DNA from: an uncultured Acidobacteriota bacterium
GTDB taxonomy: Bacteria > Acidobacteriota > Thermoanaerobaculia > UBA5066
DNA: 64,000 bases
NCBI GenBank assembly: GCA_963779415.1
Contig: CAVZYA010000002.1
Span: 832,001 to 896,000, forward strand
Direction of reading: 5' to 3'
This document shows, one piece after another, positions 11,256-38,206 of this stretch; position 1 is the stretch's first letter, and each line of letters opens with the position of its first letter. The notes beneath the pieces are model-generated. The model was not told where the DNA came from, ran no database searches, and saw only the letters and a list, made by a program, of their open reading frames with translations. The position numbers and the translations under genes were made by a program.

Positions 11256-12488
11256 GTGCGCGTTCCCCTTTTCCTCGCGCGACGCTTCCTCGGCGGCCGG
11301 CGCGGAGGGCTCCTCCGGACGGTCTCGGCTCTCGCGCTCTTCGGCGTCTCTCTCGGCGCGGCGGCCCTCGTCGTCGCGATGGGGCTGATGTCGGGCTACC
11401 GGCACGACCTCTCCGACAAGCTGGCCGGGACGAACGCCGAGGTTCTCGTGATGGTCGAGAGCGGCCGGGACCGCGCCGCCCTCGAGAAGAGCCTCGCCGC
11501 CCTTCCGGGGGTCGCCCGCGTCGCCGAGACGGGCTTCGCGTCGGGCATCCTTCTCTCGGCCGCGGCCCCGCGCGGGGCCGACGCGCTCGTGAAGGCGCTC
11601 GACCTTCCGGGGGGCACCGTCACGACCCCGCTCCTCTCGCGCGTGCCGGACCTGCCGGTGCTTCTCGGCGCGCCCCGCGCGGACGGGCGGACGCCCGTTC
11701 TTCTCGGCGCCGGTCTCGCGAAGCGCCTCGGGGTTACGGCGGGATCGCCGGTCGTCCTCGAGACGTCGTCGCTCGACCTCTCGAAGGGAATCTCGCCTCC
11801 GCGGCGGACGCTCCTTTCCGTCGCGGCCGTCGTGGAGACCGGGTTCTCGGAGGTCGACGACAACTGGGCCGTCGTCTCCCTCGCCGCCTTCTCGCGCCTG
11901 GCCCCCCCGGACGCGCGGACGGGGATCTGGGAGCTGAAGCTCCGGCACGTCTCGGACACCGACCGGACCGTCTCGGCGGCGCGCGCCGCGCTCGGCGAGA
12001 CGGTCACCGTCCTCGACTGGAAGGCGATGAACCGCGACCTCTTCGCGGCGCTCGCCATCCAGCAGACGCTCCTCTTCGTCGTTCTCGCCCTCATCGTCGC
12101 GGTGGCGGCGGGGACCGTCGTCTCCTCGCTCGTCGTCCTCCTCGCGGAGAAGACGCGCGACGTCGGCGTGCTTTCGGCCGTCGGGGCGACTCCGCGGATC
12201 ATTCAACGGACGTTCCGGCTGGCGGGTGCGCTCCTCGGCGGGGCGGGCCTCCTCCTCGGCATCGGTTTCGGCGTCCTCGTCTGCTTCGTCCTGACGACGT
12301 TCCGGCTCGTCCGCTTTCCTCCCGAGATCGCGAAGGTCTACTACCTCTCGTGGATGCCCTTCCGGCCGGAGCCCCTCCATCTCCTCGCGATCTTCGGCGT
12401 CGGGATGCTCCTCGTTCTCCTCGCCTCGGCCCTTCCGGCCCGCCGCGCCTCGCGGCTGAATCCTGCAGAGGCATTGAGGTATGAGTGA
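11256..12488 (+). CDS. LolC/E-family ABC transporter permease
   Basis: LFLARRFL..., GVSLGAAALVVAMGLMSG, VLDWKAMN, EKTRDVGVLSAVGA, PARRASRLNPAEALRYE. Confidence 0.85.
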   Translation: MRVPLFLARRFLGGRRGGLLRTVSALALFGVSLGAAALVVAMGLMSGYRHDLSDKLAGTNAEVLVMVESGRDRAALEKSLAALPGVARVAETGFASGILLSAAAPRGADALVKALDLPGGTVTTPLLSRVPDLPVLLGAPRADGRTPVLLGAGLAKRLGVTAGSPVVLETSSLDLSKGISPPRRTLLSVAAVVETGFSEVDDNWAVVSLAAFSRLAPPDARTGIWELKLRHVSDTDRTVSAARAALGETVTVLDWKAMNRDLFAALAIQQTLLFVVLALIVAVAAGTVVSSLVVLLAEKTRDVGVLSAVGATPRIIQRTFRLAGALLGGAGLLLGIGFGVLVCFVLTTFRLVRFPPEIAKVYYLSWMPFRPEPLHLLAIFGVGMLLVLLASALPARRASRLNPAEALRYE

Positions 12489-12572
12489 CCCGCGGTCACC
12501 CCACGCGGACCCGGGGGTCCGGGGGCGCGCGTAGCCAAGCTCCCGGCGAGCCATTGAGGTACGAGTAGCCCG
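12472..12572. repeat. Hairpin cassette copy 1 (12511-12551) between imperfect direct repeats of the lolE-like 3' end
   Basis: CATTGAGGTATGAGTGACCCG (12472) versus CATTGAGGTACGAGTAGCCCG (12552); core CCGGGGGTCCGGGGGCGCGCGTAGCCAAGCTCCCGGCGAGC. Confidence 0.8.
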
Positions 12573-12589
12573 GCGTAGACTTTCCGCGA

Positions 12590-13495
12590 ATGCACGCCGT
12601 CCGCTCGCCGGCGATCGACGAGGTCGCGCTCGAGGAGCGCGCCGCCTCGCTCGGGAAGAGGTCGATCAAGAAGGAGTCGAAGGTCGTCGGGATCCGGCTC
12701 GCCATCTCGATGTGCGACCTGACGACGCTGGAGGGAAGGGACTCGCCGGGCAGGATCCGGCAGCTCTGCGCCAAGGCGATCCGCCCCGATCCGGAGGACC
12801 CGTCGATCCCTTCCGTCGCCGCCGTCTGCGTCTATCCGGACCTCGTCGCCGAGGCGAAACGCGCCCTCGCGGGCTCGGACGTCAGGGTCGCCAGCGTCGC
12901 GACGGCGTTTCCGTCCGGGCGGTCGCCGCTTCCCGTCAAGCTCGCCGAAGTCCGCCGCGCCGTCGCGGCCGGGGCGGACGAGATCGACATGGTCATCGAC
13001 CGAGGCGCGTTCCTCGCAGGGGAATACGCCCGGGTCTTCGACGGGATCGTGGCGACGAAAGCCGCCTGCACCCGTCCCGACGGCTCCGCCGCGCACCTGA
13101 AGGTGATCCTCGAGACGGGGGAGCTGGAAACGTACGACAACGTCCGGCGCGCGTCGGACCTCGCCATCGCCGCGGGAGCCGACTTCATCAAGACGTCGAC
13201 GGGAAAGGTGCAGCCGGCCGCGACGCCCGCCGTGACGCTCTGCATGCTCGAGGCGATCCGCGACCACTGGCTCGGGACGGGCGTGAAGGTCGGAATGAAG
13301 CCGGCGGGCGGCATACGGACGAGCAAGCAGGCGCTCCACTACCTCGTCCTCGTGAAGGAGACGCTCGGGGCCGACTGGCTCAACGCCGACCTCTTCCGCT
13401 TCGGCGTCTCCAGCCTCCTCAACGACCTCCTGATGCAGCTGAGAAAAGAGAAGACGGGCCGTTATCAGACAGAGGAAGAATTCACGAAAGACTAA
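12590..13495 (+). CDS. deoC: Deoxyribose-phosphate aldolase
   Basis: DLTTLEG, VASVATAFPSG, DEIDMVI, LKVILETGEL, FIKTSTGK, KPAGGIRT, RFGVSSLL. Confidence 0.93.
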   Translation: MHAVRSPAIDEVALEERAASLGKRSIKKESKVVGIRLAISMCDLTTLEGRDSPGRIRQLCAKAIRPDPEDPSIPSVAAVCVYPDLVAEAKRALAGSDVRVASVATAFPSGRSPLPVKLAEVRRAVAAGADEIDMVIDRGAFLAGEYARVFDGIVATKAACTRPDGSAAHLKVILETGELETYDNVRRASDLAIAAGADFIKTSTGKVQPAATPAVTLCMLEAIRDHWLGTGVKVGMKPAGGIRTSKQALHYLVLVKETLGADWLNADLFRFGVSSLLNDLLMQLRKEKTGRYQTEEEFTKD

Positions 13496-13506
13496 GAGGC
13501 TGGAAA

Positions 13507-15027
13507 GTGAAAGAGAGACGTATTTCTCGAACGCCGGCTGCAACTGCAGCCGCCGCATATAAGAAAAAAGGTCCTTCTCCGGACTTCGACGGCGTTTGGG
13601 ATTACGCGCCCGCTCCGGAATCAACCTCGCATTTCGCGATCTCGCCGCGTTACGGCCTCTTCATCGGCGGAAGATTCGTCACGCCGAAGGCGGGGAGGTG
13701 GTTCGACACGATCAACCCGGCCACGGAGGAAAAGCTCGCCGAGGTGGCCGAAGCGGGGGAGGCCGACGTCGACGCCGCCGTCCGGGCGGCCGAGCGGGCG
13801 TACGAGAAGGTCTGGCGGCGGATGCCGGGGAAGGAGCGCGGGAAATACGTCTACCGCCTCGCCCGGATGTTGCAGGAGAAGGCCCGCGAGTTCGCCGTCC
13901 TCGAGACGAGGAACGGCGGCAAGCCGATTCGGGAGTCGCGCGATCTCGACGTCCCGCTCGCGGCGGCCCACTTCTTCTACTACGCCGGCTGGGCCGACAA
14001 GCTCGACCACGCCTTCTCCGGCCGGCGGGCGCGGCCGCTCGGCGTCTGCGGGCAGGTGATCCCGTGGAACTTCCCGCTCCTGATGGCGTCGTGGAAGCTG
14101 GCGCCGGCGCTCGCGGCCGGGAACACCTGCGTCCTGAAGCCGGCCGAGACGACGCCGCTTACGGCCCTCCATCTCGCCCGCCTCGTCGAGGAGGCCGGCT
14201 TGCCGCCGGGGGTCGTGAACGTCGTCACGGGGGGCGGCGCGACGGGGGCGGCGCTCGTTTCGCACCCGAAAGTCCGGAAGGTCGCCTTCACCGGCTCGAC
14301 GGAGGTGGGAAAGAAGATCCAGCGCGCCCTCGCCGGGACCGGAAAAAGGCTGACGCTCGAGCTGGGGGGTAAGGCGGCCAACATCGTCTTCGCGGATGCC
14401 GCGATCGACCAGGCGGTCGAAGGGATCGTGAACGGCATCTACTTCAACCAGGGACACGTCTGCTGCGCCGGGTCGCGCCTTCTCGTCGAGGAGTCCGTGC
14501 ACGACCTCGTCGTGAAGAAGCTCGCCCACAGGATCCGGACGCTTCGCCTCGGCGATCCGCTCGACAAGAACACCGACGTCGGGGCCATCAACTCGAAGGC
14601 GCAGCTCGAAAAGATCCGCGAGCTGGTCGACTCCGGCATCGCCGACGGCGCGATCCTGACGCAGGCCCCCTGCCGGATTCCCGCGAAGGGGTTCTGGTTC
14701 CCTCCTTCCTTCTTCACGAACGTGGCGCAGAGCTTCCGGATCGCGAGCGAGGAGATCTTCGGCCCCGTTCTCGCGATCCAGACGTTCCGGACGCCCGAGG
14801 AGGCGGTCGAGAAGGCGAACAACACGATGTACGGCCTCTCGGCCGGCGTCTGGACCGAAAAGGGGTCGAAGATCTTCAAGGTGTCGCAGAAGCTCCGCGC
14901 CGGCGTCGTCTGGGCGAACACCTACAACAAGTTCGACCCGACCTCTCCCTTCGGCGGCTACAAGGAGTCGGGCTTCGGAAGAGAAGGGGGCCGTCATGGT
15001 CTCTGTGCTTACCTTGAAGCCGTCTGA
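13507..15027 (+). CDS. Aldehyde dehydrogenase, catalytic chain
   Basis: PWNFP, LKPAETTP, FTGSTEVG, LELGGK, catalytic GHVCCAGS, EEIFGP, FGGYKESG; start approximate. Confidence 0.92.
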   Translation: MKERRISRTPAATAAAAYKKKGPSPDFDGVWDYAPAPESTSHFAISPRYGLFIGGRFVTPKAGRWFDTINPATEEKLAEVAEAGEADVDAAVRAAERAYEKVWRRMPGKERGKYVYRLARMLQEKAREFAVLETRNGGKPIRESRDLDVPLAAAHFFYYAGWADKLDHAFSGRRARPLGVCGQVIPWNFPLLMASWKLAPALAAGNTCVLKPAETTPLTALHLARLVEEAGLPPGVVNVVTGGGATGAALVSHPKVRKVAFTGSTEVGKKIQRALAGTGKRLTLELGGKAANIVFADAAIDQAVEGIVNGIYFNQGHVCCAGSRLLVEESVHDLVVKKLAHRIRTLRLGDPLDKNTDVGAINSKAQLEKIRELVDSGIADGAILTQAPCRIPAKGFWFPPSFFTNVAQSFRIASEEIFGPVLAIQTFRTPEEAVEKANNTMYGLSAGVWTEKGSKIFKVSQKLRAGVVWANTYNKFDPTSPFGGYKESGFGREGGRHGLCAYLEAV

Positions 15028-15084
15028 CCGTTCTGGAGCATCGGCACCATAGGCGCGCCGGCCGCGAGGAGCGAGATTTACGGC

Positions 15085-17508
15085 ATGGTCGAAGCCCTGC
15101 CGCCCGAACGCCTCCGGAACTCGTGCGACGCCTCGCGGTTCGACTTCGTGACAACGGCGGATCTCGGCGGGGACGCGGGTGTCCCCGGGCAGGGGAGGGC
15201 CGAGGATGCGATCCGGTTCGCGATCGGCATCGGGAGCGAAGGCTTCAACGTCTACGCGATGGGGCCGGCAGGTCTCGGGAAGCACGAGATCGTCCGCCGC
15301 CTCCTCGACGAGAGCGCGAGGACGAAGGAGACGCCGTCCGACTGGTGCTACGTTCACGACTTCCAGAGCGGGCAGAAGCCGAGGGCGCTGAAGCTCCCGG
15401 CCGGCCGCGCCGCGGCGTTCGCCCGCGCGATGGATCACTTCGTCGAGGTACTCCGGGGAGCCATTCCGGCCGCGTTCGAGACCCACGAGTACCGCGCCCG
15501 CCGGCACGAGATCGACGCCGAGTTTCAGGAGCGACAGGAACAGGCCTTCGACGAGCTGCGCGGGAGGGCCCGGACGCGCGGCCTCGATCTCGTCCGGATG
15601 CCGATGGGGATGGCGCTCGCGCCGTTCCGGGACGGCGAGGTGATGGACCCGGCCGTCTTCGCCAAGCTTCCCGAGGAGGAGCAGAAGCAGATCGGCGCGG
15701 CGATGTCGGAGCTCCAGGGGGAGCTGGAAAGAATCATCCAGGAGATCCCGCGCCTCCGGCGCGAGGCGGGGACGAAAGTCCGCGAGTTGAACCGCGTCTT
15801 GATCCGGACGGCGGTCCACGACCGCTTCCTCGAGGTGAGGAAGATGGTCGAGGACGTGCCGGCCGTGCAGGCGTACCTCGACGCGGTCAGCGAGGACGTG
15901 CTCACCCACGCGGAGGGCTTCCTCCCGGAGAAGGGGGGCGATCCGGCGACGCTGCGAGGCGTCCCGGCGCCGGAGCCCGACGGCAAGGAAACGGCCCTTC
16001 GCCGCTATCGGGTCAACGTCCTCGTGGACAACGCCGCGACGAAGGGAGCGCCCGTGGTCGCGCTCGACCACGCGACCTTCCCGAACCTGATCGGGCGAAT
16101 CGAGTACCTCTCCCAGATGGGGAACCTGGTCGCGGACTTCACGCTGATCCGCCCCGGCGCGCTTCACCGCGCGAACGGCGGCTATCTCCTCCTCGACGCG
16201 CTCGACGTCCTCTCGCAGCCTCTCTCGTGGGGGGGCCTGAAGCGGGCGTTGCGCGCCGGATCCATCTGCGTGGAGCTGCCGGGGCAGTCCCTGGGCCTCA
16301 TGACGGCCAGCTCTCTCGAGCCCGAGCCGATCCCGCTCGACGTCAAGGTCGTCGTTCTCGGAGACCGGACCCTTTACTACCTCCTCCACGAATACGACCC
16401 GGAGTTCGCCGGGCTCTTCAAGGTCGCGGCCGACTTCGAGGAGGACGCCCCCCGCGACGACGAGGGCGTCCGTGCCTTCGCGCGTCTCGTGGCCGCGTTC
16501 ACCCGGATGGAGAATCTCCTGCCGCTTCGGCGCGACGCCGTCGCCCGGCTCGTCGAGCACGCGTCACGGAAGGCGGAGGACGGCGAGAAGCTCTCGCTGA
16601 AACTGCGGGACCTCGACGACCTTCTGCGCGAAGCGGACTGTCTCGCGAGAAAGGAGGGCTCGACGTCGATGACCGCGGCCGACGTCGAGCGGGCGCTCGA
16701 GGGGCGAGAGCGTCGCGCCGACCGGATCCGGAAGCGGATCCTCGACGAGATGATGCGGGGAACGCTTCTCATCGACACCGCCAGCGCGACGGTGGGGCAG
16801 GTGAACGCCCTGTCGGTCCTCCAGGTCGGCGGAACCGCCTTCGGCCATCCCTCGCGAGTGACGGCCCGCGTGCGGCTCGGGAGCGGCAAGGTCGTCGACA
16901 TCCTCCGGGAGGTGGAGATGGGCGGCCCGAACCACACCAAGGGCGTCCTGATCCTCGGAGGCTTTCTCGCGGGACGTTTCTTGCCGGACCTCCCTCTGTC
17001 GCTCTCGGCCAGCCTCGTCCTCGAGCAGAACTACGGCGGCGTCGAGGGGGACAGCGCCTCGTCGGCCGAGCTCTATTCGCTCCTTTCCGCCCTCGCCGAC
17101 GTCCCGATCCGGCAGTCCTTCGCCGTCACCGGCTCCGTAAACCAGCGCGGCGAGGTGCAGGCGATCGGCGGCGTCAACGAGAAGATCGAAGGCTTCTTCG
17201 ACCTCTGCGCCCGCCGGGGGCTGACGGGAGAACAGGGTGTCCTGATCCCGAAATCGAACGTTCCCCACCTGATGCTCCGGAAGGATGTCGTGGCCGCGGC
17301 CGAGGCGGGACGTTTCCGGGTCTTTCCCGTCGAGACGATCAACGAAGGGATCGAGCTTCTCACCGGGCTCCCCGCCGGGGAACGCGGGCCCGATGGCCGG
17401 TTCCCGGAGACGAGCGTCAATGGACGGGTCGAGGCGCGGCTCCTCGCCTTCGCGAAGGCGGCGCGCGCCTCCGCCAGGCCGGAGGAGAACGCGAAGGAGG
17501 GAACGTGA
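15085..17508 (+). CDS. Lon-like (S16, LonC/AAA_32-type) protease
   Basis: GPAGLGK, PGALHRANGGYL, LEPEPIPLDVKV, catalytic GDSASSA and IGGVNEKIEGF. Confidence 0.9.
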   Translation: MVEALPPERLRNSCDASRFDFVTTADLGGDAGVPGQGRAEDAIRFAIGIGSEGFNVYAMGPAGLGKHEIVRRLLDESARTKETPSDWCYVHDFQSGQKPRALKLPAGRAAAFARAMDHFVEVLRGAIPAAFETHEYRARRHEIDAEFQERQEQAFDELRGRARTRGLDLVRMPMGMALAPFRDGEVMDPAVFAKLPEEEQKQIGAAMSELQGELERIIQEIPRLRREAGTKVRELNRVLIRTAVHDRFLEVRKMVEDVPAVQAYLDAVSEDVLTHAEGFLPEKGGDPATLRGVPAPEPDGKETALRRYRVNVLVDNAATKGAPVVALDHATFPNLIGRIEYLSQMGNLVADFTLIRPGALHRANGGYLLLDALDVLSQPLSWGGLKRALRAGSICVELPGQSLGLMTASSLEPEPIPLDVKVVVLGDRTLYYLLHEYDPEFAGLFKVAADFEEDAPRDDEGVRAFARLVAAFTRMENLLPLRRDAVARLVEHASRKAEDGEKLSLKLRDLDDLLREADCLARKEGSTSMTAADVERALEGRERRADRIRKRILDEMMRGTLLIDTASATVGQVNALSVLQVGGTAFGHPSRVTARVRLGSGKVVDILREVEMGGPNHTKGVLILGGFLAGRFLPDLPLSLSASLVLEQNYGGVEGDSASSAELYSLLSALADVPIRQSFAVTGSVNQRGEVQAIGGVNEKIEGFFDLCARRGLTGEQGVLIPKSNVPHLMLRKDVVAAAEAGRFRVFPVETINEGIELLTGLPAGERGPDGRFPETSVNGRVEARLLAFAKAARASARPEENAKEGT

Positions 17509-18338
17509 GGATCCGCCGCATCCTCGTTGCGCTCGACGGCTCCCCCGAGAGCCGTTCGACCCTGGCGGCGGCGGCGAGGCTCGGAATGGCGGCCGGTGCC
17601 GAGCTTTCCGGACTCTTCGTCGAGGATGTCGAGCTCCTCCGTCTCGCCGGCCTGCCGTTCGCCCGCGAAACCGGCGTGTCGTCGGGGGTCTTCCGGCGGC
17701 TCGACACGGCCGACGTCGAACGGAGATTCCGCATCGGGGCGGAGAGGGCGGAGGCGACGCTTCGCGAGGCCACCGCAACCGCGGGGCTTCGATCGTCGTT
17801 CCGCGTGGCCCGCGGACGGGTCGTTCCGGAGCTTCTGGCCGCGGCCCGGGAGGCGGACGTCGTCGCGACGGGAAAGAGAAGCGGCTACGGGCCCGCCGGG
17901 CGCCGGCTGGGTACGACGGCCCGCAGCCTCATCGCGCATCTCGAGGCCCCGGTCCTCGTGGGCGGCATGGAAGGCTCTTCCGAGGGGCCCGTGGTCGTCA
18001 TCTGCGCGATACCCGACGTGCCGGAGGAGGCTCTCGGGTTCGTGGCGCTCCTGGCGCGTGCCTTCGGAGCCCCGGAGGTGGTCGTCATCGCGGGCGAGCG
18101 CGGGGCCGGACCGAGCCGCGCGGAACCGGAGGGCCTTCGCATCCGTCGCCGCAGCTTTCCGTCGATCCCGTCCGGAGACGTGAAGGCGCTTCCGGAGATT
18201 GCGCTCGCCAGCACGGTCGTCCTCGTCCGTCCCGAGGGGACGGCCGGCCACGAGCTTCTCGTCGCGCTCGCGGAGACCGTCACCTGTCCGGTCTTCGTCA
18301 TCGCGCCTCACGGCTTCGCCGAGCTTCTTTCGGCCTAG
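17505..18338 (+). CDS. Universal stress protein-like
   Basis: IRRILVALDGSPES, LSGLFVED, LGTTARSLI; GTGA overlap with the Lon gene. Confidence 0.8.
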   Translation: MRIRRILVALDGSPESRSTLAAAARLGMAAGAELSGLFVEDVELLRLAGLPFARETGVSSGVFRRLDTADVERRFRIGAERAEATLREATATAGLRSSFRVARGRVVPELLAAAREADVVATGKRSGYGPAGRRLGTTARSLIAHLEAPVLVGGMEGSSEGPVVVICAIPDVPEEALGFVALLARAFGAPEVVVIAGERGAGPSRAEPEGLRIRRRSFPSIPSGDVKALPEIALASTVVLVRPEGTAGHELLVALAETVTCPVFVIAPHGFAELLSA

Positions 18339-18348
18339 GAACTCCGCC

Positions 18349-19491
18349 ATGAAAGACAGGCCCGACGTCTACCGGAAGCTCCAGGAGCACATCGACCGGA
18401 TGCCCGTCGGCTTTCCGGCGACGAAGAGCGGCGTCGAGATCCGTTTCCTGAAGCGGCTCTTCACCGAAGAAGAGGCCGAAGCCGCGCTCCTTCTCTCCGC
18501 CCTTCCAGAGCCCCTGGAGAAGATCTTCGCGCGCGCGCCAAAAGGGCGGTGGACGCGCGAGACGTTCGAGGCGCTCCTCGACGGGCTCGCGGAGAAGGGC
18601 GCCATCATGGGCGGGCGCTCCAGAGTCCCGCACGGCGGGACGAAGCGGTACAGCAAGGCGATGCTGGCCCTCGGCATGTACGAGATGCAGGTCGACCGGC
18701 TCACCGCCGAAATGCAGCGCGATCTGGAGCAGTACACCGCCGAGGGATTCGCGGGCGCCTTTCTCGGGCCGAGGACGAAGCAGATGCGAACGGTCCCCGT
18801 CGACGTCCGGATCGTTCCCGAGCGCCGGGTGGGCCGGTACGACGACGCGCGCCGGCTGATCGGGGAAAGCCCGGGCCCCTGGGCCGTCATCAACTGTGTC
18901 TGCCGGCAGGGGAAGGACCTCGTCGGCGAGCCTTGCCGCCAGACCGACGTCCGGAGGACCTGTCTCCTGATGAAGGGGATGGCCAGATACGCCCTCGAGA
19001 CGGGAGTCGGAGAGGCCCTGACGGCGGATCGGGTGCTCGAGCTCGTCGACCGGGCCGAGCGGGAGGGGATGGTCCTCCAGCCCGAGAACGCGCAGGACCC
19101 GCTCTTCGTCTGCTTCTGCTGCGGCTGCTGCTGCGGCGTCCTCCGGATGGCGAAGCAGTTCCCGAAGCCGGCCGAGGCGGTCGACTCCAACTTCCGGGTC
19201 GAGGTGGACGCCGGACTCTGCTCCGACTGCGAGACGTGCCGCCCGCGCTGCCCGATGGAGGCCCTGCAGACGGTGGACGGCAAGACGGCCGTCGACCGGG
19301 ACCGTTGCATCGGCTGTGGCGCCTGCATCACGACCTGTCCGTCGGACGCCCTCCGTCTCGTGGAGAAAGAGCGGCCGCACGTCCCGCCGAGGGACCAGTC
19401 CGCGCTCTACCGGAAGATCCTCGTCGAGCGGTACGGCGTTCTCGGGACGGCGGGGATGCTCGGAAAAGCGCTCCTCGGACGGAAGGTCTGA
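18349..19491 (+). CDS. 4Fe-4S dicluster protein
   Basis: CVCRQ, CFCCGCCCG, CSDCETCRPRCP, CIGCGACITTCP. Confidence 0.85.
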   Translation: MKDRPDVYRKLQEHIDRMPVGFPATKSGVEIRFLKRLFTEEEAEAALLLSALPEPLEKIFARAPKGRWTRETFEALLDGLAEKGAIMGGRSRVPHGGTKRYSKAMLALGMYEMQVDRLTAEMQRDLEQYTAEGFAGAFLGPRTKQMRTVPVDVRIVPERRVGRYDDARRLIGESPGPWAVINCVCRQGKDLVGEPCRQTDVRRTCLLMKGMARYALETGVGEALTADRVLELVDRAEREGMVLQPENAQDPLFVCFCCGCCCGVLRMAKQFPKPAEAVDSNFRVEVDAGLCSDCETCRPRCPMEALQTVDGKTAVDRDRCIGCGACITTCPSDALRLVEKERPHVPPRDQSALYRKILVERYGVLGTAGMLGKALLGRKV

Positions 19492-19501
19492 CCGGCGCCC
19501 T

Positions 19502-19891
19502 CTAGTCCCAGATTCGTTCCACGCCCTGGCCGTCGAGCGCTTCGTCGGCGCTCACGAGCTTCGATCCGGTGGCCGTGGCCGCGGCCAGGATGAGGCGGTC
19601 CATCGGGTCGCGCACGGCGGGAAACGACGCAAACGCCGTTGCCTGCTCGATGTCGAGAGCGAGAACTGCGTATCCGGCATGCCCGGCGAGTGTCTCGAGG
19701 ACGCGGGAGAGGCCGACGCGGAGGCGTCCTCTTTCGTAGAGGAGGGAGATCTCGACGAGCGAGATGGCGGGGACGTAGCAGAGCGAGCGGGCGACATCCG
19801 CCGAGCGGAAGGCGCGCTCCGCCGCCCGGCCGAGGCGCCGCCGGTCCGTCAGCTGCCAGACGAGGGCGTGGGTGTCGGCGACGAAGGTCAT
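19502..19891 (-). CDS. vapC: PIN-domain toxin, VapC family
   Basis: FVADTHALVW, ISLVEI, DPMDRLILAAA, LVSAD. Confidence 0.88.
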   Translation of the reverse strand: MTFVADTHALVWQLTDRRRLGRAAERAFRSADVARSLCYVPAISLVEISLLYERGRLRVGLSRVLETLAGHAGYAVLALDIEQATAFASFPAVRDPMDRLILAAATATGSKLVSADEALDGQGVERIWD

Positions 19892-29439: not shown

Positions 29440-29569
29440 GACCTTTCCCTTTCCTTCGAGTCCCGCGGCGGTGTCGCGCGAATTCGGCGTTCGATTGGCG
29501 CGCGAAAGTGTAGCATCGCGGTCGAAGCGGCGGACCGGGAGCGTTTCTGAAGCGAGGAGGTTTTCGGCG

Positions 29570-32430
29570 ATGCGGCGATATCTGGCGGTCTCCCTTCTCT
29601 GTGCGGCCGTCGCGGGGCTCAGTGCACCGCAGGCGGACGCCCAGACCAACCCGACCCTTCTCAGGCTTCCCGGGATGAGGGCGGCCGGGTCGATCTCGCG
29701 GGATACCTACGGGATCCCGTCGATCTGGGCGCTCAACGCGTGGGACCTTTTCTACCTCCAGGGCTATGTCCACGCGAACGACCGTCTCTTCCAGATGGAT
29801 ACCCTCCGCCGGCAGGCCTCCGGAACGCTGGCGGAGCTGCTCGGGCCGGGCGCGCTCGCGAGCGACGTCCAGCTCCGGACGATGGGACTCCGCCGGGCGG
29901 CGATGGGCTCGCTCGCGGCGCTCTCTCCCCAGGCGATGGAGGCGATGGAGGCCTATTCGGCCGGTGTCAACCAGTGGGTCGCCACCCACTCGCTCCCGCC
30001 GGAGTACGCCGCCCTCAGCCTGACGAAGTTCGCTCCGTGGACGCCGCTCGACAGCGTCACCGTCGGCAAGGCGCTCGCCTTCCAGCTCTCGTTCGACCTC
30101 GACACGACTCCAACCATCGCGCTCCTGACGTATCAGGCGGTCGGGAAGGTCGTCGGGTTCGACGGTACGGCTCTCTTCGCCGAGGATCTCTGGCGCTCCT
30201 CGCCGTTCGACCCGTTCACGACGCTCGGCAGCGCCAACACGCCCCGTTCGACCGCTCCGGGGAAGATGGAGTTCACGACCCACCAGGCCGTCGCAGGCGA
30301 AACGGAGGAAGCCCGTGCCGCGGGTCTCGAAGCGCTCTCGAAGGCCGCCGACGACATGCTGGCCAGCGGGACGCTCGATCTCGCGCTCGCGTTCGAGCAG
30401 AAGGCGCGGCAGGTGCCGCTCCTGGTTGACATCCTCGACAACAGGCGTCCCGCCAGCTCGAACGAGTGGGCCGTGGTTCCGGCCCTGACGGCCGACGGCC
30501 AGCCGCTCCTCGCCAACGACCCGCATCTCACGCTCTCGACACCCGCAATCTGGTATCCGATCTCCCTCCGGGGGGGCGGATTCAACGTCGCCGGGAACAG
30601 CTTTGCCGGAGCGCCGTTCGTCATCCACGGCCAGAACGAGAACGTCGCCTGGGGCTCGACCGTCCATCCGATGGACGTGACGGACACGTTCCAGGAGACG
30701 GTCATCCCGGCTCCCGGCTCCCCGGTGGGATACGCGACCGTCTACAAGGGGACGGCGGAGCCCATCATCGCGATCGCCGAGGTGTTCAAGACCAACAACC
30801 CCGGATCGGGGATCAAGGACAACATCACGGTCGTCCCCCCGAGCGGCTCCATCCCCCCGGCCTCGCTCGTGATGCCGCGCCGCGACTACGGTCCGATCAT
30901 CACCCCCGACACCCTCGCCTCCGGCTCGGTTCTCAGCGTCCAGTACACGGGATGGAGCCGGACGCGTGAGCTCGAGGCGTTCATGCGGATCGACCTCGCA
31001 ACGTCGGTGGCGGAAGTGAAAGCCGCCCTCCAATACTTCGACTGCGGCTCGCAGAACTTCGCCGTCATCGACACCTACGGAACCGTCGCGTACCTGACGA
31101 GCGCCGAGCTGCCGATCCGCGAGGACCTCCAGAGCAACACCGTCAACGGGTCCCCCCCTGGCTCATCCGGAACGGCTCGGGCGGAAACGAGTGGCTGTCC
31201 CCTCCCTCCCCGCTTCCCGAGGACCAGGCCGTCCCCCACCAGATTCTTCCGTACGCGGAAATGCCCCAGGCCGTCAACCCGGCCGCGGGGTGGTTCGCCA
31301 ACGGAAACAATGACCCCGTTGGCACGTCGCTCGAGAACAACCCTCTCGGCACGCAGAGGCCGGGCGGGGGCATCTTCTATCTCGACGTCGGCTACGGATA
31401 CGACGGCTTCCGGGGAGGCCGGATCGCGCAGCTGATCAGGCAGAAGATCGCCGCGGGCGTGAAGTTCACGCGGGCCGACTTTGCCCAGATCCAGGCCGAC
31501 AGCGGGATGATCGACGCGCAGGTCTTCGTCCCGTACATCAGGACGGCGTTCGCCGACGCCAACGCCCCCGGAGCCGATCCGACCCTCGCCGCCCTCGGCC
31601 AGGACCCCGCGATCGTCGCGGCGGTGGCACGGCTCGCCGCGTGGGACTTCTCGACGCCGACGGGTCTCAAGGCCGGCTACGACGCGGGGAAGGCGGCGGG
31701 GGTCGACCCGACTCCCGCGCAGGTATCGGCCAGCGTCGCCGCGACCCTCTATGCCGTCTGGAGGAGCGAATTCGTCGCGAACACGATCGACGTCGTCCTG
31801 AACGCCATGCAGCTGCCGATTCCACCGGACTCGACGACCCTGGTGGCTCTCCGGCACCTCCTGGACACCTTCTCGACGGGCGGCGGCGTCGGAGCGTCGG
31901 GCCTCGATTTCTTCAACGTTCCCGGCGTGGCCAATGCCGCCGACCGGCGCGACATCCTGATCCTCAAGAGCGTGGCGGACGGGCTCGGGCTCCTCTCCAG
32001 CAACGCCTTCGCCCCGGCCTTCGCGGGCTCGACGAACCTCGATGACTACCGCTGGGGCAAGCTCCACCGGATCGTCTTCGATCACATACTGGGAGAGCCG
32101 TTCAGCATACCGATTGCGGGAGGAGCCTTCCCGAACCCGCTCGGCGACGCCCTCCCGGGCATCCCGCGGCAGGGGGGATACGAGGTCGTCGACCGCTCCG
32201 ACAACGCCGTCCGCGCGAAAACCGTGAACGGGTTCATGTTCAGCCACGGGCCTTCGAGACGGTACCTTGGCGAGGCGACCCCGACCGGGATCGTCGGCCA
32301 GAACACCCTCCCGGGCGGCGTCAGCGGCGTCCTCGGGGACCCGAACTACTTCAGTCTCCTCCCGCTCTGGCTTGTCGACGCGTACTACTCGCTGACCGTC
32401 CAGTCGGGTCCCGTGATCCCCTGGCAATGA
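29570..32430 (+). CDS. Penicillin/AHL acylase family Ntn hydrolase (frameshift near 31155)
   Basis: RDTYGIPSI, QGYVHANDRLFQMD, nucleophile SNEWAV, LANDPHL, QNF, WGKLH, GPSRRY. Confidence 0.9.
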
Positions 32431-32458
32431 GGAGATAGCCGTCCGGCTTCCGGCGAGA

Positions 32459-32487
32459 GCGGCGGGTCACCCCGCCGCTTTTTTCTT
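32459..32487 (+). terminator. Rho-independent terminator
   Basis: GCGGCGGG-TCAC-CCCGCCGC followed by a T tract. Confidence 0.75.
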
Positions 32488-32538
32488 CGCGGCTCTCGTG
32501 GTCCCTGGATCTCCGGGTCGCGCGGGGGGGGAAGTAAG

Positions 32539-32615
32539 TGGTGGAGCTGAACGGGATCGAACCGTCGACCTCCTGAGTGCGATTCAGGCGCTCTCCCAAA
32601 CTGAGCTACAGCCCC
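32539..32615 (-). tRNA. tRNA-Ala (anticodon CGC)
   Basis: GGGGCTGTAGCTCAGTTTGGGAGAGCGCCTGAATCGCACTCAGGAGGTCGACGGTTCGATCCCGTTCAGCTCCACCA; G3:U70 pair, encoded CCA. Confidence 0.96.
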
Positions 32616-32681
32616 ACCTGTTCGGGACAGGACCGCGGAGCGTAGCGGGAAGCGCCCGGGGCGTCAATTCACGGGGAATCG

Positions 32682-33914
32682 TCAGCTCCGGATCGTGGAG
32701 ACGGCCGGAACGGGACGGAGGAGGTCCTTGAGGCTCGTCCCCTGGAGGACGCCACGCTCCTCGCGCGTCGCGCGAATGAAGACCTCGCGGAGCGTCGTCG
32801 CGACCCGGTCGTCCTCGCCCGGCACGGCTCGCGGCGCGGACTCGCCGATGGCCCGCGCGACCGCCCAGACGGAGATCTCGTCGGGCGGGCGGGCGAGAAC
32901 GTAGGCCCCGGAGGGGTCGCGCCGAACGAGGCCGTCGACGACGAGGCGCGCCAGGACGGTCTCGACCTGGTCCACGGGACGCTCGACGGCCTCGACGATC
33001 GCGGGGAGCAGGCGAGAGGCGCGGTCCGCCTCCCAGGCCGTGGCGAGCGGCATGAGAATCGAGACGGCCTCGTAGAGGCGGAGGCCGTGCCCGGTCCGGG
33101 CGGGGGCGTCCTGGCCGGAAAGCTCCTCGCGGTACTGGACCGCATGCGCGAAGGCCACGCCGAGAAGGATGATGGCGAAGGCGATGCCGACCGCGAGGAT
33201 GAAGATGACGGCCGCCGAGATCGGGCCGTAGATGTACGACATCGTCGACCGGAACGACGTGAGAATGCGCGCGCTTCTCGCGAAGACGATCCGGAGGATC
33301 GTCAGGCCGGCCGCGGAGAAAAGGGCAGCGGCGGCCGCCGGTCCCCACCGGACGCGAGCGCCCGGAAGGACACGGTAGAGGAGCAGCAGGACGGCAGAGG
33401 CCACGACGAGCCCGAGCCATCGGAACTCGTCGAAGGAGGCACCGCTCTCGAGAAGGAATGACGTGAAGATGCCGACGGCGACGGGGCCGACGACCATCAG
33501 CGCGAGCGCGATGGCGAGGCGCACGAGGAAGGGGCGCGGGTGCACGGTGGTCCCCCAGATGCTCTTGGCGGCCCCCTCGATCTGGAAAAAGGTGCGGATC
33601 GAGGCCGCGAGGAAGAAGACCGACGCCCCTCCGGCGAGCCTCGCGGCCTGGTGCGCGAAGGTCTGGATGGCGTCGAGGACGTCGCGCCCGGCGCCCGGGA
33701 CGACCCATCGGATGACCCGGTAGAGGCCCGTGCCGCTCGCGCCGAGGACCGTGGAGGTGAGAAACGTGACGGCCGCCATGAGCGGGACGATCGTCAGAAG
33801 CGAGGAGTAGGCGAGCGAGCCGGCGAGGTCGAGCCCCCGCGCGTCCTGGAAGCGGTGGAACGTGCCGCGGAGGACGGCCCGGACCCGGCCGGCGGTCTCG
33901 CGAATGGGGGACAT
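32682..33914 (-). CDS. YihY/BrkB family membrane protein with C-terminal Rrf2-like wHTH
   Basis: LAGSLAYSSLLTIVP, LLYRVLP, IYGPISA; C-terminal YVLARPPDEISV. Confidence 0.85.
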   Translation of the reverse strand: MSPIRETAGRVRAVLRGTFHRFQDARGLDLAGSLAYSSLLTIVPLMAAVTFLTSTVLGASGTGLYRVIRWVVPGAGRDVLDAIQTFAHQAARLAGGASVFFLAASIRTFFQIEGAAKSIWGTTVHPRPFLVRLAIALALMVVGPVAVGIFTSFLLESGASFDEFRWLGLVVASAVLLLLYRVLPGARVRWGPAAAAALFSAAGLTILRIVFARSARILTSFRSTMSYIYGPISAAVIFILAVGIAFAIILLGVAFAHAVQYREELSGQDAPARTGHGLRLYEAVSILMPLATAWEADRASRLLPAIVEAVERPVDQVETVLARLVVDGLVRRDPSGAYVLARPPDEISVWAVARAIGESAPRAVPGEDDRVATTLREVFIRATREERGVLQGTSLKDLLRPVPAVSTIRS

Positions 33915-33998
33915 GGCGCTGCGATCGTATCGCCGCGGGGGCTCCCCCTCCGGTCCGGGTGTGAGAACATTCCGTCCCGTCGACAGGAGGATCCGTCC

Positions 33999-34292
33999 AT
34001 GGCCGACACGCCCAATCTCGAGAACGCGGCAAAGGTGGTCGAAGAGAAGATCGACGCGACCCGCGAGAGCCTCGCGGACCGCGGCGCCAGGGTCCGCTCG
34101 AAGCTGGACGACGTCGCGGGTGACGTCCGGCAGAAGGCGCGCGAGCTGCGCGACCGGATCGCGGACACCTCGTGGGACGACGTCGTCGACAAGACGTCGA
34201 GCTTCGTCCGGGACAATCCCGGCAAGGCGATCGGAATCGCCCTCGCGGCCGGTTTCGTCCTCGGCTTCCTGCTCCGGCGGAGAGACGACTGA
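33999..34292 (+). CDS. DUF883 (ElaB/YqjD) family protein
   Basis: FVRDNPGKAIGIALAAGFVLGFLLRR tail anchor; RBS AGGAGG. Confidence 0.85.
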   Translation: MADTPNLENAAKVVEEKIDATRESLADRGARVRSKLDDVAGDVRQKARELRDRIADTSWDDVVDKTSSFVRDNPGKAIGIALAAGFVLGFLLRRRDD

Positions 34293-34579
34293 TGCCCGCT
34301 CCCGAGGTCCGTCCGCCGGCCCCGCACGGGGCGTCGCCGGAGGGGCCTGTCGGTGGCGCCACCGGCGCCTTCGAGTTCCTGCCGCGGGACTTCGACTGGA
34401 AGGCGAGCGCGATCTCGACCGTGCAGCGCTACCCGATCCCGTGCCTTCTCGGCGCGGCCGTGGCCGGTTTCTGGCTCGGACGAACGCGCGGCCGCGCGAT
34501 CGCGGGCGTCGCCGTCGGCGCTCTCGGGAACCTTGCCGTCAAGGAGATCTCAAGGCTCGTCCAGAGCAGGGAATTCTGA
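34292..34579 (+). CDS. Small membrane-anchored hypothetical protein
   Basis: TGATG overlap; VQRYPIPCLLGAAVAGFWLGR. Confidence 0.65.
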   Translation: MPAPEVRPPAPHGASPEGPVGGATGAFEFLPRDFDWKASAISTVQRYPIPCLLGAAVAGFWLGRTRGRAIAGVAVGALGNLAVKEISRLVQSREF

Positions 34580-34628
34580 CCGGCCGGAAGTCCGGGACTG
34601 CGGTCCGCCGGCGTCGTAGACTGGCGGC

Positions 34629-35750
34629 ATGGAGCGGATCGCGCGCGCGCACCCCTCGATCCTGGTCTTCGCCGCGTCGGCGGGGTGAGCGTGCAAGCTG
34701 GGTCAGTCTGACCTCACGAGGCTGCTGGAAGCTCTGCCGCGGGTTTCGGACCCGCGCGCTCTCGTCGGATACGAGTCTTCCGACGACGCGGCCGTCTTCC
34801 GCCTCGGCCGGAGGGGCGACCCGGACGCCGAGACGATCCTCTCGACGCTCGATTTCTTCACTCCCGTGGTCGAGTCGCCCTTCGACTTCGGACGGATCGC
34901 GGCGGCGAACGCTCTCTCCGACGTCTGGGCGATGGGGGGCGAGCCCCTCTTCGCGCTGAACGTCGTCGGCTTTCCGACGAAGGCGCTTCCGCTCGAGGTC
35001 CTCGGCGAGATCCTGAGGGGCGGCGCGGAGGTCGCCGCAGAAGCCGGCATCCCGATCCTCGGCGGACATTCGATGGACTTCGACGTCCCGGTCTACGGGA
35101 TGGCGGTGACGGGGCGGGCGAAGGCCTCCGCGATCCGGCGGAACGTCGGGGCGCGCCCGGGCGATGCGCTCGTCCTGACGAAGGCGCTCGGCACCGGCAT
35201 CGTGACGGTGGCTCTCCGCGCGCGGGCTCTCGCCGCGGCGGAAGGGAAGCCGTTCGACGAGGAGACCGCCCCGACCCAGGCGGAGGAGGCGGCCGCGGTC
35301 GCCTCGATGGCGCGCCTCAACCGGAACGCCTCCCGGGTGGCGGCGCGCTTTCCGGTCTCGGCCGGGACGGACGTGACCGGCTTCGGCCTGCTCGGGCATC
35401 TCGGACCGATGCTCCGCGGTTCGGGCGTCGCGGCGGAGATCTCGGCCTCCGCGGTGCCGCTTCTTCCGGGAGCGCGCCGGCTCGTTTCGCGGGGTCGAGT
35501 GCCGGGCGGGACGAAGAAGAACCTCGCCGCCGCCAAAGGCGTGCTCGAAACGACGGGCGTCTCGGAAGAAGACCTCCTTCTCCTCGCCGACGCACAGACT
35601 TCGGGCGGGCTTCTCCTCTCCGTACGCGCCGACGAGGCGGGTCCCTTCGTCTCCGCGCTCCGGGAAGCGGGTGATACCGCCGCGGCACGAATCGGGAGCA
35701 TCCTTCCCTCCGGCACCTTGCCCGAGGGGCACGCGAAGGTCCTTCCCTGA
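34629..35750 (+). CDS. selD: Selenide, water dikinase, selenocysteine-containing (UGA at 34686-34688)
   Basis: MERIARAHPSILVFAASAG-U-ACKLG, SSDDAAVF, DFFTPVV, AANALSDVWAMGG, DVTGFGLLGH, DAQTSGGLL, all in one frame across TGA. Confidence 0.92.
34701..34713 (+). promoter_or_regulatory. Putative SECIS hairpin
   Basis: GGTCA-GTC-TGACC stem-loop starting 13 nt after the in-frame UGA. Confidence 0.55.
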
Positions 35751-35766
35751 AGAGAAGGAGGCGACG

Positions 35767-36110
35767 ATGAGCGAACCGGAAAAGAAGGACGAGCAGGACT
35801 GGGTGGCGGTCAAGGCTGTTCCGAACGAGACGGAGGCCGCCCTTCTCGCGGGATTCCTCGACAGCGAGGGGATCCCGGCGCGCGTCGTGGACCGGAGCTT
35901 CCATCTCACGCCGACGGTGGAGGACAACGAACTCTCGCCGATCGCCGTGGCCGTTCCGAGGAACCGCCTCGCCGAGGCCGAGGCGCTTCTCGCCTCCCGC
36001 GAGTCGGGTTTTCCCCGGCCGGGGCGGACGAGGAGGCCCTCCTCACGGACGAGGGCCCGATACACGTCGATCCGGAGGGCCCCAAAGGAAAATCGGGCTC
36101 CCGCGGGTAG
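35767..36110 (+). CDS. DUF2007-like putative signal-transducing protein (3' end uncertain)
   Basis: WVAV...NETEAALLAGFLDSEGIPARV...VAVPRNRLAEAEALL; RBS AAGGAGG. Confidence 0.7.
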
Positions 36111-36125
36111 AATCCGCCGTCTCGG

Positions 36126-38095
36126 ATGGAAAAGGCTCCCGAACGAATCGGCCGGTACCGGATCCTTCGCGTCCTCGGAAAAGGCGCCATGGGGGTCGTG
36201 TATCTGGCTCACGACCCGCAGATCGACCGTGAGATCGCGCTCAAGACGATCCGCTTCTCCGAAGCGGAAGGGAGCTTCAACCCCGAAGAGGCGAAGGCCC
36301 GCTTCCTGAAGGAGGCGCGCATCTCGGGGCGCCTCCAGCACCCGAACATCGTGACCGTCTTCGACGTCGGCGAGGACGGCGGGACGCTCTTCCTCGCGAT
36401 GGAGTACGTGCCGGGCGGGAGCTTCTCCCAGCGGCTCGCCGACCCGGACTCGCTCCCGATCCACGAGCGGATCCGGATCACCGCGGAGGTGGCCGATGCG
36501 CTCGCCCACGCGCACGACCGGGGAGTCCTCCACCGCGACGTGAAGCCGGCCAACATCCTCCTGACGCCGCACCTCGACGCGAAGGTCACGGACTTCGGCA
36601 TCGGAAAGCTCCTCACGGGCGACACCGACCTCACCTCGACGGGCCAGATGGTCGGGTCGCCTGCCTACATGTCCCCCGAGCAGATCAAGGGAGACAAGCT
36701 GGACGCCCGGACGGACATCTTCTCCCTCGGCGTCGTCCTCTATCAGGCGATCACGCTCCGAAAGCCGTTCCCCGCCGACACGCTGACGACCCTCGTCTAC
36801 CAGATCCTCCACGAGGAGCCGCCGGACCCCTCCACGCTTCACGAGAATCTCCCCGCGGAGTACTCGCCGATCCTCCACAAGTGCCTCGCGAAAAAGCGGG
36901 AGGAACGCTATCAAGGCGCCGCGGAGCTGGCGGCGGACCTCCGGCACGCCCTCGGCGACGCGCCGGTGTCGAGGACGACGGGGCTGACCGCCTCCTGGGC
37001 CCCTCCGGTCCCCGACGCGACGGCCACGTCGGAAACTCCGACGCAGGCGACGCCGGCCGTCGATGCGGAATCGCCGACGATCACGGCCGGCCGCCGGATG
37101 GGCGAGGAGGCCGCGAAGGCCGAGAAGGCCGCGGTCCCGGCCTCCCGCCAAAGGGGCGCCGAAGAGGAAGAGCCGGAGCGCCGGTCGCCCTCCTTGCGAT
37201 CGGGGCCGTCGTTCTCGCGGGAATCGTCGGGATCGTCGCGCTCCGCCGGGGCGGCTCGCAGACAGCGGAGACCGGCGCGGAAACCACTCCGACGGCGGCC
37301 CCGGCGGTGGAAACTCCTGCCGCCGCGACAGCGGCGGAGCTCGCCCCCACGGTGACCCCGTATGTCCCGGCTCCTCCGACCCCTGAGGCCGCGACGACCT
37401 CTGCGAAAAAGGCCGCGAAGACGAAAGAGCCGAAGGAGCCGAAATCCGCTGCCACCACGCAGCCCTCCCCGACGGCGTCTTCGAAGAAACCCTCGTCCGC
37501 TTCGGCGGCCGCCACGGGCGCGCCGACCCGGCACACCGCCGACGCGACCTATTCCGTTCGCCGGCTCGTTAAGCTCGGCGTGACGCCGATCCAGGCCCGT
37601 GTCTTCCTCGACGGGAAGTACATCGGCGTCTGCGACGACTGGGACGACTCGGGGGGCGGGGCTCTCCTCTACTTCCGCGGCGAGGCGACGCACCGGCTCC
37701 GCTTCGCCTATCCCGGCTACAGGGATCTCCGGGTCGACATCCAGATCCGGAGCAACGCCCCCGACGACAAGATCGACGTGGAGCTGCCGTTACAGGCCGG
37801 TACGGGCGAAGGCCCGCCGGGTCCCTCGGGCGACTTTCGCCGGCCGAACTACCGGACGGTCGGCCCGGCCTTTTTTAACGTCGAGCCGCCCGACGCGTCC
37901 GTCAGCGTCGACGGCACGGTTCTCGGTTCCGCCTCGAAGTGGGCGACGGAGGAGCTGGCCCTCGACGGGCCGGCGGTTCACGAGGTCGTTCTCTCGGCCC
38001 CGGGGTACGAGACGGTCACCCTGCGCGTCCTCGTGGCCCAGACGGCCGGCGAGGCGCGGGCTTCCATCAAAGAGAAGCTGAAGAAGACGAACTGA
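36126..38095 (+). CDS. Membrane Ser/Thr kinase with C-terminal PEGA-like domains (frameshift near 37170)
   Basis: GKGAMG, ALK, HRDVKPAN, DFG, GSPAYMSPEQ; TM PVALLAIGAVVLAGIVGIVAL; VTPIQARVFLDG and VEPPDASVSVDG. Confidence 0.87.
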
Positions 38096-38177
38096 CCGTC
38101 GGCAGGCGTGTAGCCGGGGGTCCGGGGGCGATCGCGTTCGCAGCCAAGCCCCCGGCGAGCGAGAAGCTGAAGAAGAC
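38072..38177. repeat. Hairpin cassette copy 2 (38114-38160) between perfect 17 bp direct repeats of the kinase 3' end
   Basis: GAGAAGCTGAAGAAGAC at 38072 and 38161; core CCGGGGGTCCGGGGGCGATCGCGTTCGCAGCCAAGCCCCCGGCGAGC. Confidence 0.82.
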
Positions 38178-38206
38178 CCCGTAAACCGGGCTTCCCGGCT
38201 TGGAGG

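Follow-up and report, generated by a model that had tools for sequence, protein, structure and literature searches.

Small non-coding repeats of bacterial genomes are known either as repetitive extragenic palindromic sequences (REPs), which are not reported to make duplications and whose mechanism is little understood, or as miniature inverted-repeat transposable elements (MITEs), which make short duplications of fixed length. Long direct repeats are found with the insertion sequences (IS) IS1634 and IS1549. Elements of the IS200/IS605 family are hairpin-dependent and strand-specific; they insert 3' of a motif that resembles their own cleavage site and make no target duplication. In the part of Furuta 2010 (PMC2853133) drawn on here, kilobase-sized restriction-modification units are described that are flanked by target duplications of more than 30 bp and have empty counterparts in relatives; the same part contains two Haemophilus cases with 46-bp duplications overlapping the 3' end of a gene and gives a target duplication of 19–26 bp for IS1630. 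The termini of REPs often overlap stop codons, as stated in a section of PMC3733652. Here we analysed a window of 64,000 nt from the genome of an uncultured Acidobacteriota bacterium (genome G000, window at G000:C2:832001-896000), in which a GC-rich hairpin of 41–47 nt stands at two places between two copies of a gene end. With slightly more confidence than doubt, we read it as a member of a protein-less, REP-like family of mobile hairpins of 41–45 nt that inserts with a long target duplication and has not been described before. A literature search, with supplements outside its scope, found no description of a REP-like hairpin with long target duplication.

The hairpin and the duplicated target

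The hairpin core, CCGGGGGTCCGGGGGCG-loop-AAGC(T/C)CCCGGCGAGC, was found on the forward strand at 12511-12551 (site 1) and 38114-38160 (site 2). As reported in a first-pass annotation of the window, each core lies about 20 nt past a TGA stop codon and adjoins a copy of the gene end: the bases abutting the hairpin 3' end (...GAGC, after ...CCCGGCGAGC) repeat the last codons of the upstream gene. At site 1 the sequence CATTGAGGTATGAGT (12472-12486) is repeated as CATTGAGGTACGAGT at 12552-12566 with 14 of 15 positions identical, the sole mismatch being synonymous (TAT/TAC). At site 2 GAGAAGCTGAAGAAGAC (38072-38088) is repeated exactly at 38161-38177 (17/17). The coding part of the left copies ends in TGA (12486-12488 and 38093-38095), and the right copies carry the in-register alternative stops that had been noticed before, TAG at 12566-12568 and TAA at 38182-38184. 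The 19-nt right half of the core matched the window twice, compared with 0.24 matches expected by chance. Since copies from other assemblies show the same anatomy, the arrangement is neither due to chance nor an artefact of one assembly.

Similarity between the copies had been said to fade over about 20 nt past the gene end. Its tail is decayed, yet in the best anchored alignment of both sites the homology extends beyond the stop codon as far as the hairpin, with 12472-12510 aligned to 12552-12591 and 38072-38113 to 38161-38205. Site 1 consists of a left target copy of 39 nt (12472-12510; codons LRYE, TGA and a decayed copy of the native post-stop sequence), the 41-nt core (12511-12551) and a right copy (12552-12591) that contains the native gene end (LRYE, TAG) and the native sequence up to the deoC start, matching the single copy of empty sites. 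Site 2 consists of a left copy of 42 nt (38072-38113; EKLKKTN, TGA, decayed tail), a 47-nt core with an apical stem that is 6 nt longer (38114-38160) and a right copy with the orphan gene end (EKLKKTP, TAA) and native downstream sequence (38161-38205).

All flanking genes lie on the plus strand. The left copy of site 1 is the working 3' end of an open reading frame (ORF) for an FtsX/MacB-type, LolE-like permease (11256-12488; Pfam FtsX and MacB_PCD), and a gene for a DeoC/LacD-family aldolase follows at 12590-13495 (ORF and Pfam). The ORF that ends in the left copy of site 2 (36881-38095) had been called a Ser/Thr kinase; Pfam (E <=1e-5) gave only a C-terminal PEGA domain and no kinase domain. 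Downstream of site 2 lies gcvT (aminomethyltransferase, by Pfam; 38250-39362). A promoter-like site, TTGACG-17 nt-TATCGT, is seen at 38207-38235 between the right copy of site 2 and gcvT. At the scan thresholds the right copy of site 1 contained no canonical promoter; by eye, TTGAGG-16-TAGACT with 8/12 promoter matches can be read there.

Orthologous junctions had been named as the place to look for empty sites, and at lolE-deoC such sites prevail. Only 2 of the 30 loci in the family are filled (G000 and G052), and the other 28 have one gene end and no core; among them are same-genus genomes with a single copy that resembles the right-hand copy. Conversely, G000 lacks the hairpin at several places that are filled in relatives, among them pstB, an aldehyde dehydrogenase gene and a sigma-54-type regulator gene. 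An empty allele was also present in the public run X5, where a 440-nt contig of about 94% identity maps to 12210-12474 plus 12555-12721 and omits exactly 12475-12554, i.e. 80 nt that correspond to the hairpin and one repeat copy. From this 80-nt skip it follows that the feature is not an assembly artefact, an objection that had been anticipated and against which the common anatomy across assemblies speaks as well, and that the right copy is native sequence. The right-hand copy is thus the native gene end, contiguous with the downstream DNA.

The apparent "variable spacer" to the left of the hairpin is a decayed duplicate of the native sequence past the stop codon of the right copy. At site 1 and in G052 the two are about 61% identical by eye. 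In young copies the spacer is nearly identical to the native sequence right up to the hairpin (32/34 in L112; L117, L124 and L030 alike), and in L001 and L030 it matches the native sequence after a 36-nt in-frame gap. Because the spacer is the decayed tail of the duplicate, the element is the hairpin alone, placed between two target copies. This bears on a second reading in the first-pass annotation, a scaffold with a variable guide RNA, in which the hairpin would be an RNA handle and the adjoining gene-end copy the guide for a nuclease or recombinase. Such an RNA would fit a right copy that begins exactly at the fixed 3' end of the hairpin, as well as a hairpin that folds on one strand only (seven G-U cells). 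However, the right copy is native DNA that runs on into the downstream gene, empty sites have this copy alone, and the duplication continues beyond the far side of the hairpin into the left spacer. Furthermore, the orientation relative to genes is not fixed, Rfam gave no match around site 1, TnpB and reverse transcriptase (RT) were not found in G000, the IS110-type genes are distant and no partner lies nearby. We consider a guide RNA very unlikely.

Searching the whole assembly and the genomes of relatives for the core, as the first-pass annotation had suggested, revealed further copies, many of them with flanking duplications at gene boundaries. They form one hairpin family that is spread through one family of Acidobacteriota from soil and sediment. 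G000, which is 92% complete, holds six copies, namely four strong ones, a weaker one (C1:376238) and, near C2:436737-436812, a variant whose apical part has a long insert; each of the six lies at a gene boundary and is flanked by a repeat of the end or the start of the gene. Scans for the exact pattern yielded 11 copies from contigs of genomes and 12 from those of metagenomes. The titled genome contigs with the element were labelled Acidobacteriota or Thermoanaerobaculia, bar one metagenome-assembled genome (MAG) titled Acidithiobacillales; L004, L005 and L010 all come from this MAG, the label or binning of which looks odd. With a covariance model built from 25 cores, we detected cores in 7 of the 8 genomes of the genus (1–11 each) and in 33 of the 63 genomes of the family, representing 4 of its 10 genera: 12/29 genomes in g2, 1/1 in g3, 14/17 in g5 and, under stricter filters, 5/7 in g1, with none in the six other genera. 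At class level the exact pattern matched in 8 of 401 genomes; four of the 13 places listed there (L011, L012, L013, L017) were discarded as chance matches within coding DNA. A genome-wide scan for 13-mer direct repeats 30–160 nt apart gave 496 matches and was too noisy for use.

In total 92 distinct copies were collected, 91 of which were scored for duplication by an alignment anchored at both sides of the core. Scores of at least 18 were taken as positive; for a null set of 150 mismatched left/right pairs the 95th and 99th percentiles were 12 and 20. The threshold was reached by 42 of the 91 copies, with duplications of 16–48 nt (median 39 nt) that measured 31–48 nt in 38 of the 42. The lengths clustered at 39–45 nt in genera g1 and g2 and at about 35 nt in g5. 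Tandem arrays of hairpin plus target copy were present at L124, L143, L142 and L127. The earlier proposal of a tiny non-autonomous element with unusually long duplications is thus borne out by the existence of a family, by its presence/absence polymorphism and by the 42 duplicated copies. The duplication, put at 17 bp or more, is indeed long, but its actual length exceeds what had been seen at first (median 39 nt rather than 15–17).

The hairpin is composed of a G/C stem of 8–9 bp, an AA bulge and a short inner stem with a variable tip. On its 5' side the stem arm occurs as a direct repeat, and on its 3' side there is a CGAGC tail that is fixed. Cores are 41–45 nt long (47 nt with a longer tip) and fall into subfamilies of 41 nt and of 43–45 nt; those with a 9-bp stem have an extra G and C on both arms. 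In the 41-nt core, which has 11 pairs, 99.6% of the cells are paired under a structure specified by hand. One inner pair covaries (GC 11, CG 10, UA 1), and compensatory changes keep the pairing in L086 and L139 (C-G to T-A) as well as in L094 (GCG/AGC to ACA/TGT). Among the unpaired parts T8, AAG and CGAGC are invariant. Seven G-U cells, which would be A-C on the other strand, identify the written strand as the folding strand. The folding energy was no better than that of shuffled sequences (z of 0.36, -1.77, 1.02 and 0.80), and the minimum-free-energy fold may use either of the two direct-repeat 5' arms. Hence covariation backs the 8-bp stem of the first-pass annotation, whereas the energy lends it no support and either 5' arm can pair.

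Across 25 pairs of orthologous insertions the mean identity is 92.8% in the core; the gene body reaches 84.8%, each of the coding copies 79% and the spacer 70.5%. The hairpin is kept either by selection or by exchange among copies. An Rfam search of window positions 12300-12800 (site 1 only) returned no matches at E up to 10. Neither window copy contained a terminator-like site, and no T run follows the stem. In form the element comes nearest to REPs; its copy number, tag and RAYT gene (REP-associated tyrosine transposase) do not agree with a REP.

Target sites and gene boundaries

In most clusters of insertions the flanking gene is co-oriented with the core, and the duplicated piece comprises its last 2–13 codons plus the stop. 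By hand classification the gene lies on the opposite strand in about 5 of 24 clusters and at G000 C2:134029, where the piece comprises the start and the first codons. The position of the stop within the piece ranges from about 6 to 39 nt without a fixed register. A long duplication keeps both neighbours whole only if the duplicated piece spans a gene boundary, such that surviving insertions sit at boundaries. The association with gene boundaries therefore looks largely like the survival of harmless insertions. Among the start duplications, the orphan start codon at L085, L094, L095 and G000:C2:134029-134069 opens, as judged by eye, a short ORF that runs through the reverse-complemented hairpin and stops at or just before the working start codon (at L085 its TGA overlaps the ATG), an arrangement that suggests translational coupling.

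Of 24 independent clusters, 20 carry A at position -3, counted back from the duplicated piece, against a genomic G+C content of 68%; -2 and -1 are mostly purines (R). This A-R-R motif resembles the core's own end, GAGC. For the right boundary of the piece no motif was found. Words resembling the core arm were not enriched in or after targets (mean best match of 6.54, random windows of the genome giving 6.40); the GGGGTCTGG that follows the target of L112, considered as such a word, is part of another repeat family. Of the earlier statement that the element targets gene ends, the A at -3 and the repeated use of some ends remain, whereas the variable stop register and the duplication of gene starts show it to be only partly right.

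Several places were hit repeatedly. The pstB end (DYITGRFG stop) is filled in g1, g2 and g5, with right copies that begin at three different positions, and G108 has two hairpins and three gene-end copies there. Several genes ending in EALR(Y/H)E are filled as well, for which the FtsX type is assigned by motif alone except for the gene in the window. At an overlapping-gene boundary of g5, 9 of 16 genomes are empty or carry another repeat and 7 carry the core or a core fragment, with at least three core junction positions. At this operon boundary (L144-L159) the upstream stop overlaps the downstream GTG start, and different genomes carry a core, a shortened core or GGGGTC(A/T)GGTCTAC, a repeat of the type associated with RAYT genes. 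With respect to replication, the leading strand carries three of four G000 copies but not the fourth, a distribution that is confounded with gene direction.

The favoured reading, a mobile hairpin with long target duplication, would involve the following steps. One hairpin would be placed directly after A-R-R, between two copies of a target piece of 16–48 nt, by a trans-acting enzyme that presumably cuts the two target strands about 35–45 nt apart. The gene would then use the copy joined to its body, while the other copy would stay behind as an orphan near the upstream signals of the neighbour. After insertion the untranslated tail of the left copy would decay, its silent sites would drift to A/T and selection would keep the hairpin. 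Insertions elsewhere than at gene boundaries would be lost, and the conserved hairpin may have a role at the level of the host or of the element.

A similar product might arise without a dedicated enzyme. During copy-choice, a stalled nascent strand would switch to a hairpin copy elsewhere, copy it up to ...GAG and return by microhomology to an A-R-R located about 40 nt behind its point of departure, thereby recopying that stretch. The A at -3 and R at -2 that precede the piece in native DNA are similar to the hairpin 3' end GAGC, the core of L117 and L094 ends in A, which is the native base at -1, and variable duplication lengths (16–48 nt) and tandem arrays would be natural outcomes. However, the core boundaries are constant in nearly all copies, including a final C that native sites lack, and homology to the core 5' arm is not enriched at or in targets. 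Also the lengths (39–45 nt in g1/g2, about 35 nt in g5) cluster more tightly than free switching predicts. We regard copy-choice as unlikely, though deserving of consideration.

Divergence of the two copies and the search for a partner enzyme

For a codon comparison of the left and right copies the reading frame was set by the G+C content at third codon positions of the gene body, independently of the right copy; 9 of the 42 sites were unscorable. The 33 scorable sites comprised 147 identical, 78 synonymously changed and 15 non-synonymously changed codons, or 41 synonymous and 11 non-synonymous ones when one site per cluster was used. Three of the non-synonymous calls stem from a 1-nt deletion in the right copy of G088, and two serine codons switch between AGY and TCN. 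Where the copies differ, the left has A/T and the right G/C 54 times and the reverse holds 15 times (14 vs 2 by cluster). For the nearly exclusive restriction to synonymous differences there are only partial explanations: the orphan copy could overlap signals of the downstream gene, recombination tracts from empty alleles could overwrite it up to the hairpin, or the left copy could have come with the element.

Orphan copies that keep their frame and an in-register stop, with synonymous-only differences at many sites, would also be expected from recoding, in which the right copy would still be translated by ribosomes that bypass the hairpin or read through it. The spacing of the copies is, however, not a multiple of three (80 nt at site 1), and, by eye, the reading frame in which the right copy follows the core end differs among sites. 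The right copy of G088 has the 1-nt deletion, that of G405 a Y to D change, and gene-start duplications show the same pattern. Recoding is therefore scarcely credible.

The history of individual loci provides further insight. The right copy of G424 is the same (22/22) as the native allele in two relatives with an empty site. Comparing L154 (G424) with L156 (G248, empty site) gives 98.7% identity over the 300 nt that follow the hairpin on its right and 93–95% farther away and on the left, as if a recombination tract ended at the hairpin. At the locus of site 2 the spacer is common to several lineages, yet left and right copies share lineage-specific residues, which points to exchange following an old insertion.

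Such ancestry changes could mean that hairpin and left gene end travel together between related genomes as a recombination-borne unit, with a homologous crossover within the gene and a joint at ...GAGC that is either illegitimate or specific to the hairpin. In that case the left copy would be a foreign functional allele and the right copy the former gene end of the recipient. The 78 synonymous versus 15 non-synonymous differences, including the serine AGY/TCN switches (L101, L136), would follow directly, as would the same gene ends being hit in different genera and the change of ancestry at the hairpin of G424 (native right copy, 22/22; 98.7% vs 93–95%). Against such import, the spacer and hairpin of site 2 are common to three lineages whose coding copies are lineage-specific (SD/SD, LN/LN and TN/TP); the lineage-specific residues indicate an old insertion with later exchange rather than a recent import. 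Moreover, in the young L112, L117 and L124 left and right copies are near-identical through the non-coding tail, as a local duplication predicts. We judge a recombination-borne unit to be improbable. Another reading is a self-guided DNA cassette, consisting of the hairpin and the left gene-end copy of about 40 nt, in which the copy would serve as a homology guide to the same end elsewhere. If true, the incoming copy would become the working gene end and the host's own end would be orphaned, i.e. insertion would be programmed without a guide RNA. It would account for the synonymous-only differences, the repeated hits across genera on pstB and further gene ends, and the ancestry change in G424. 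We nevertheless hold this cassette to be quite improbable.

With regard to an enzyme that could move the hairpin, profile searches of G000 gave no matches for Cas1, TnpB-type proteins (PF07282) or RT (PF00078). The first-pass annotation had noted that no transposase or RT for the hairpin lies in the window, and indeed no nuclease or recombinase partner was found nearby either. Three IS110-type genes (PF01548; C2:1589362, C1:807310 and C1:690520) were rejected as partners, all being far from cores. The four Y1_Tnp genes of G000, which are RAYT-like and about 320 aa long (G000:C2:1647136-1647456, C1:1391112-1391432, C2:1274029-1274349 and C2:1690907-1691227), were rejected for having a different repeat in their flanks. 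They are flanked by inverted repeats of the GGGTCAGGTC / GACCTGACCC type and represent a separate REP-like system in G000. A pair of inverted cores 1.7 kb apart in G140 was considered as an autonomous element and dismissed; the intervening ORF encodes a membrane protein, by eye similar to cytochrome bd subunit II, and no transposase. A gene-bearing version of the element was not found.

Spacer integration by Cas1-Cas2 duplicates a repeat. A Cas1-Cas2 or casposase-like integration of a fixed 41-nt DNA into non-CRISPR targets, with a ruler-defined duplication of 35–45 nt, would be in line with the insert of 41–45 nt, with a duplication of about 35–45 nt and with arrays that hold 30–36-nt pieces between 43-nt hairpins. 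However, Cas1 (PF01867) was found in none of the 8 genus genomes, 7 of which have cores, and in only 12 of the 63 family genomes, and the array-bearing G108 lacks it. Cas1 was thus rejected as partner, and we take this mode of integration to be highly improbable.

Several observations weigh against a mobile hairpin with long target duplication, the reading we favour. A significant duplication was missing in 49 of the 91 copies; these low-scoring copies may be diverged, may retain similarity at the protein level only (the aldehyde dehydrogenase site) or may lie inside mosaics with other small hairpin repeats. The duplication length varies (16–48 nt), unlike that of classical transposases, and the orphan right copy, whose differences from the left copy are synonymous in 78 codons and non-synonymous in 15, does not decay as a free pseudogene would. 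In G000 none of the transposase, RT, TnpB and Cas1 classes yielded a partner. In addition, pstB, one g5 operon boundary and a third gene were hit again at slightly shifted junctions, which would require that target choice involves more than A-R-R or that survival filters the insertions very strongly. Finally, all data come from MAGs and metagenomes, and no RNA run was listed as containing this stretch of DNA.

Comparison with known systems

The set of signatures, i.e. a fixed 41-nt hairpin, a duplication of about 40 nt and an A-R-R motif, is not explained by any known enzyme class in these genomes. If an enzyme cuts the strands 35–45 nt apart, it would be of a kind not described for bacterial transposition. 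Duplication of a boundary would offer a mobile sequence a way into overlapping genes and packed operons without harm, and the resulting orphan gene ends mislead gene callers and readers.

With REPs and bacterial interspersed mosaic elements (BIMEs) the family shares a short, G/C-rich imperfect palindrome with fixed unpaired tails, an extragenic position near stops, a fold on one strand and an occasional position in mosaics with other small hairpins. It differs by its 1–11 copies per genome across the 63 family genomes, where REPs number hundreds (the REP criterion being about 100 or more), and by the lack of a conserved GTAG/CGTC tag; of the four strong copies in G000, only two have GTAG ahead of the core. 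Likewise, the core does not flank the RAYT-like genes of G000, which have GGGTCAGGTC-type repeats there. Target duplications of 31–48 nt are the rule here, whereas the words 'duplication' and 'duplicated' are absent from the text of PMC3733652. A second hairpin family (GGGG.GCGCGGGGGGT.CGA...CGC.CCCCCC) directly follows the cores at L078, L082 and in G000 C1 near 1723741, places without visible target duplication. At L102, L110, L130, L131 and L135 (g2) the core lies inside a BIME-like composite element of about 170 nt, with a GGCTGC...GCAGCC hairpin and GATTGGAC on its left side and a GCGCGC...GCGCGC hairpin and a TTGACA-containing module on its right.

In contrast to MITEs, the element is a single hairpin with unlike tails and a 16–48-nt duplication, without terminal inverted repeats, and no related IS was found. 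Long target duplications of variable length are shared with IS1630, IS1634 and IS1549; these are, however, full IS with a DDE transposase and terminal inverted repeats, and neither such a parent nor inverted ends were found here. The hairpin, its strand-specific fold and a short target motif resembling the element's own end recall the IS200/IS605 family. The present family differs in that a duplication is made, that A-R-R precedes the duplicated piece and that the sequence to the left of the hairpin is variable. Guide-RNA systems (TnpB omega-RNA, IS110 bridge RNA) have an effector gene, and none stands beside the hairpin in G000. Diversity-generating retroelements differ as well, given that G000 lacks PF00078 matches and that the differences between copies are mostly silent exchanges of G/C and A/T and not adenine-specific. 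The units in the consulted part of Furuta 2010 resemble the present insertions in that a unique target is directly duplicated over more than 30 bp, that relatives have empty sites and that no mobility gene lies inside. Each of those inserts was, according to that part of the paper, seen once, whereas here a 41-nt hairpin with a fixed boundary and a target motif recurs at dozens of sites.

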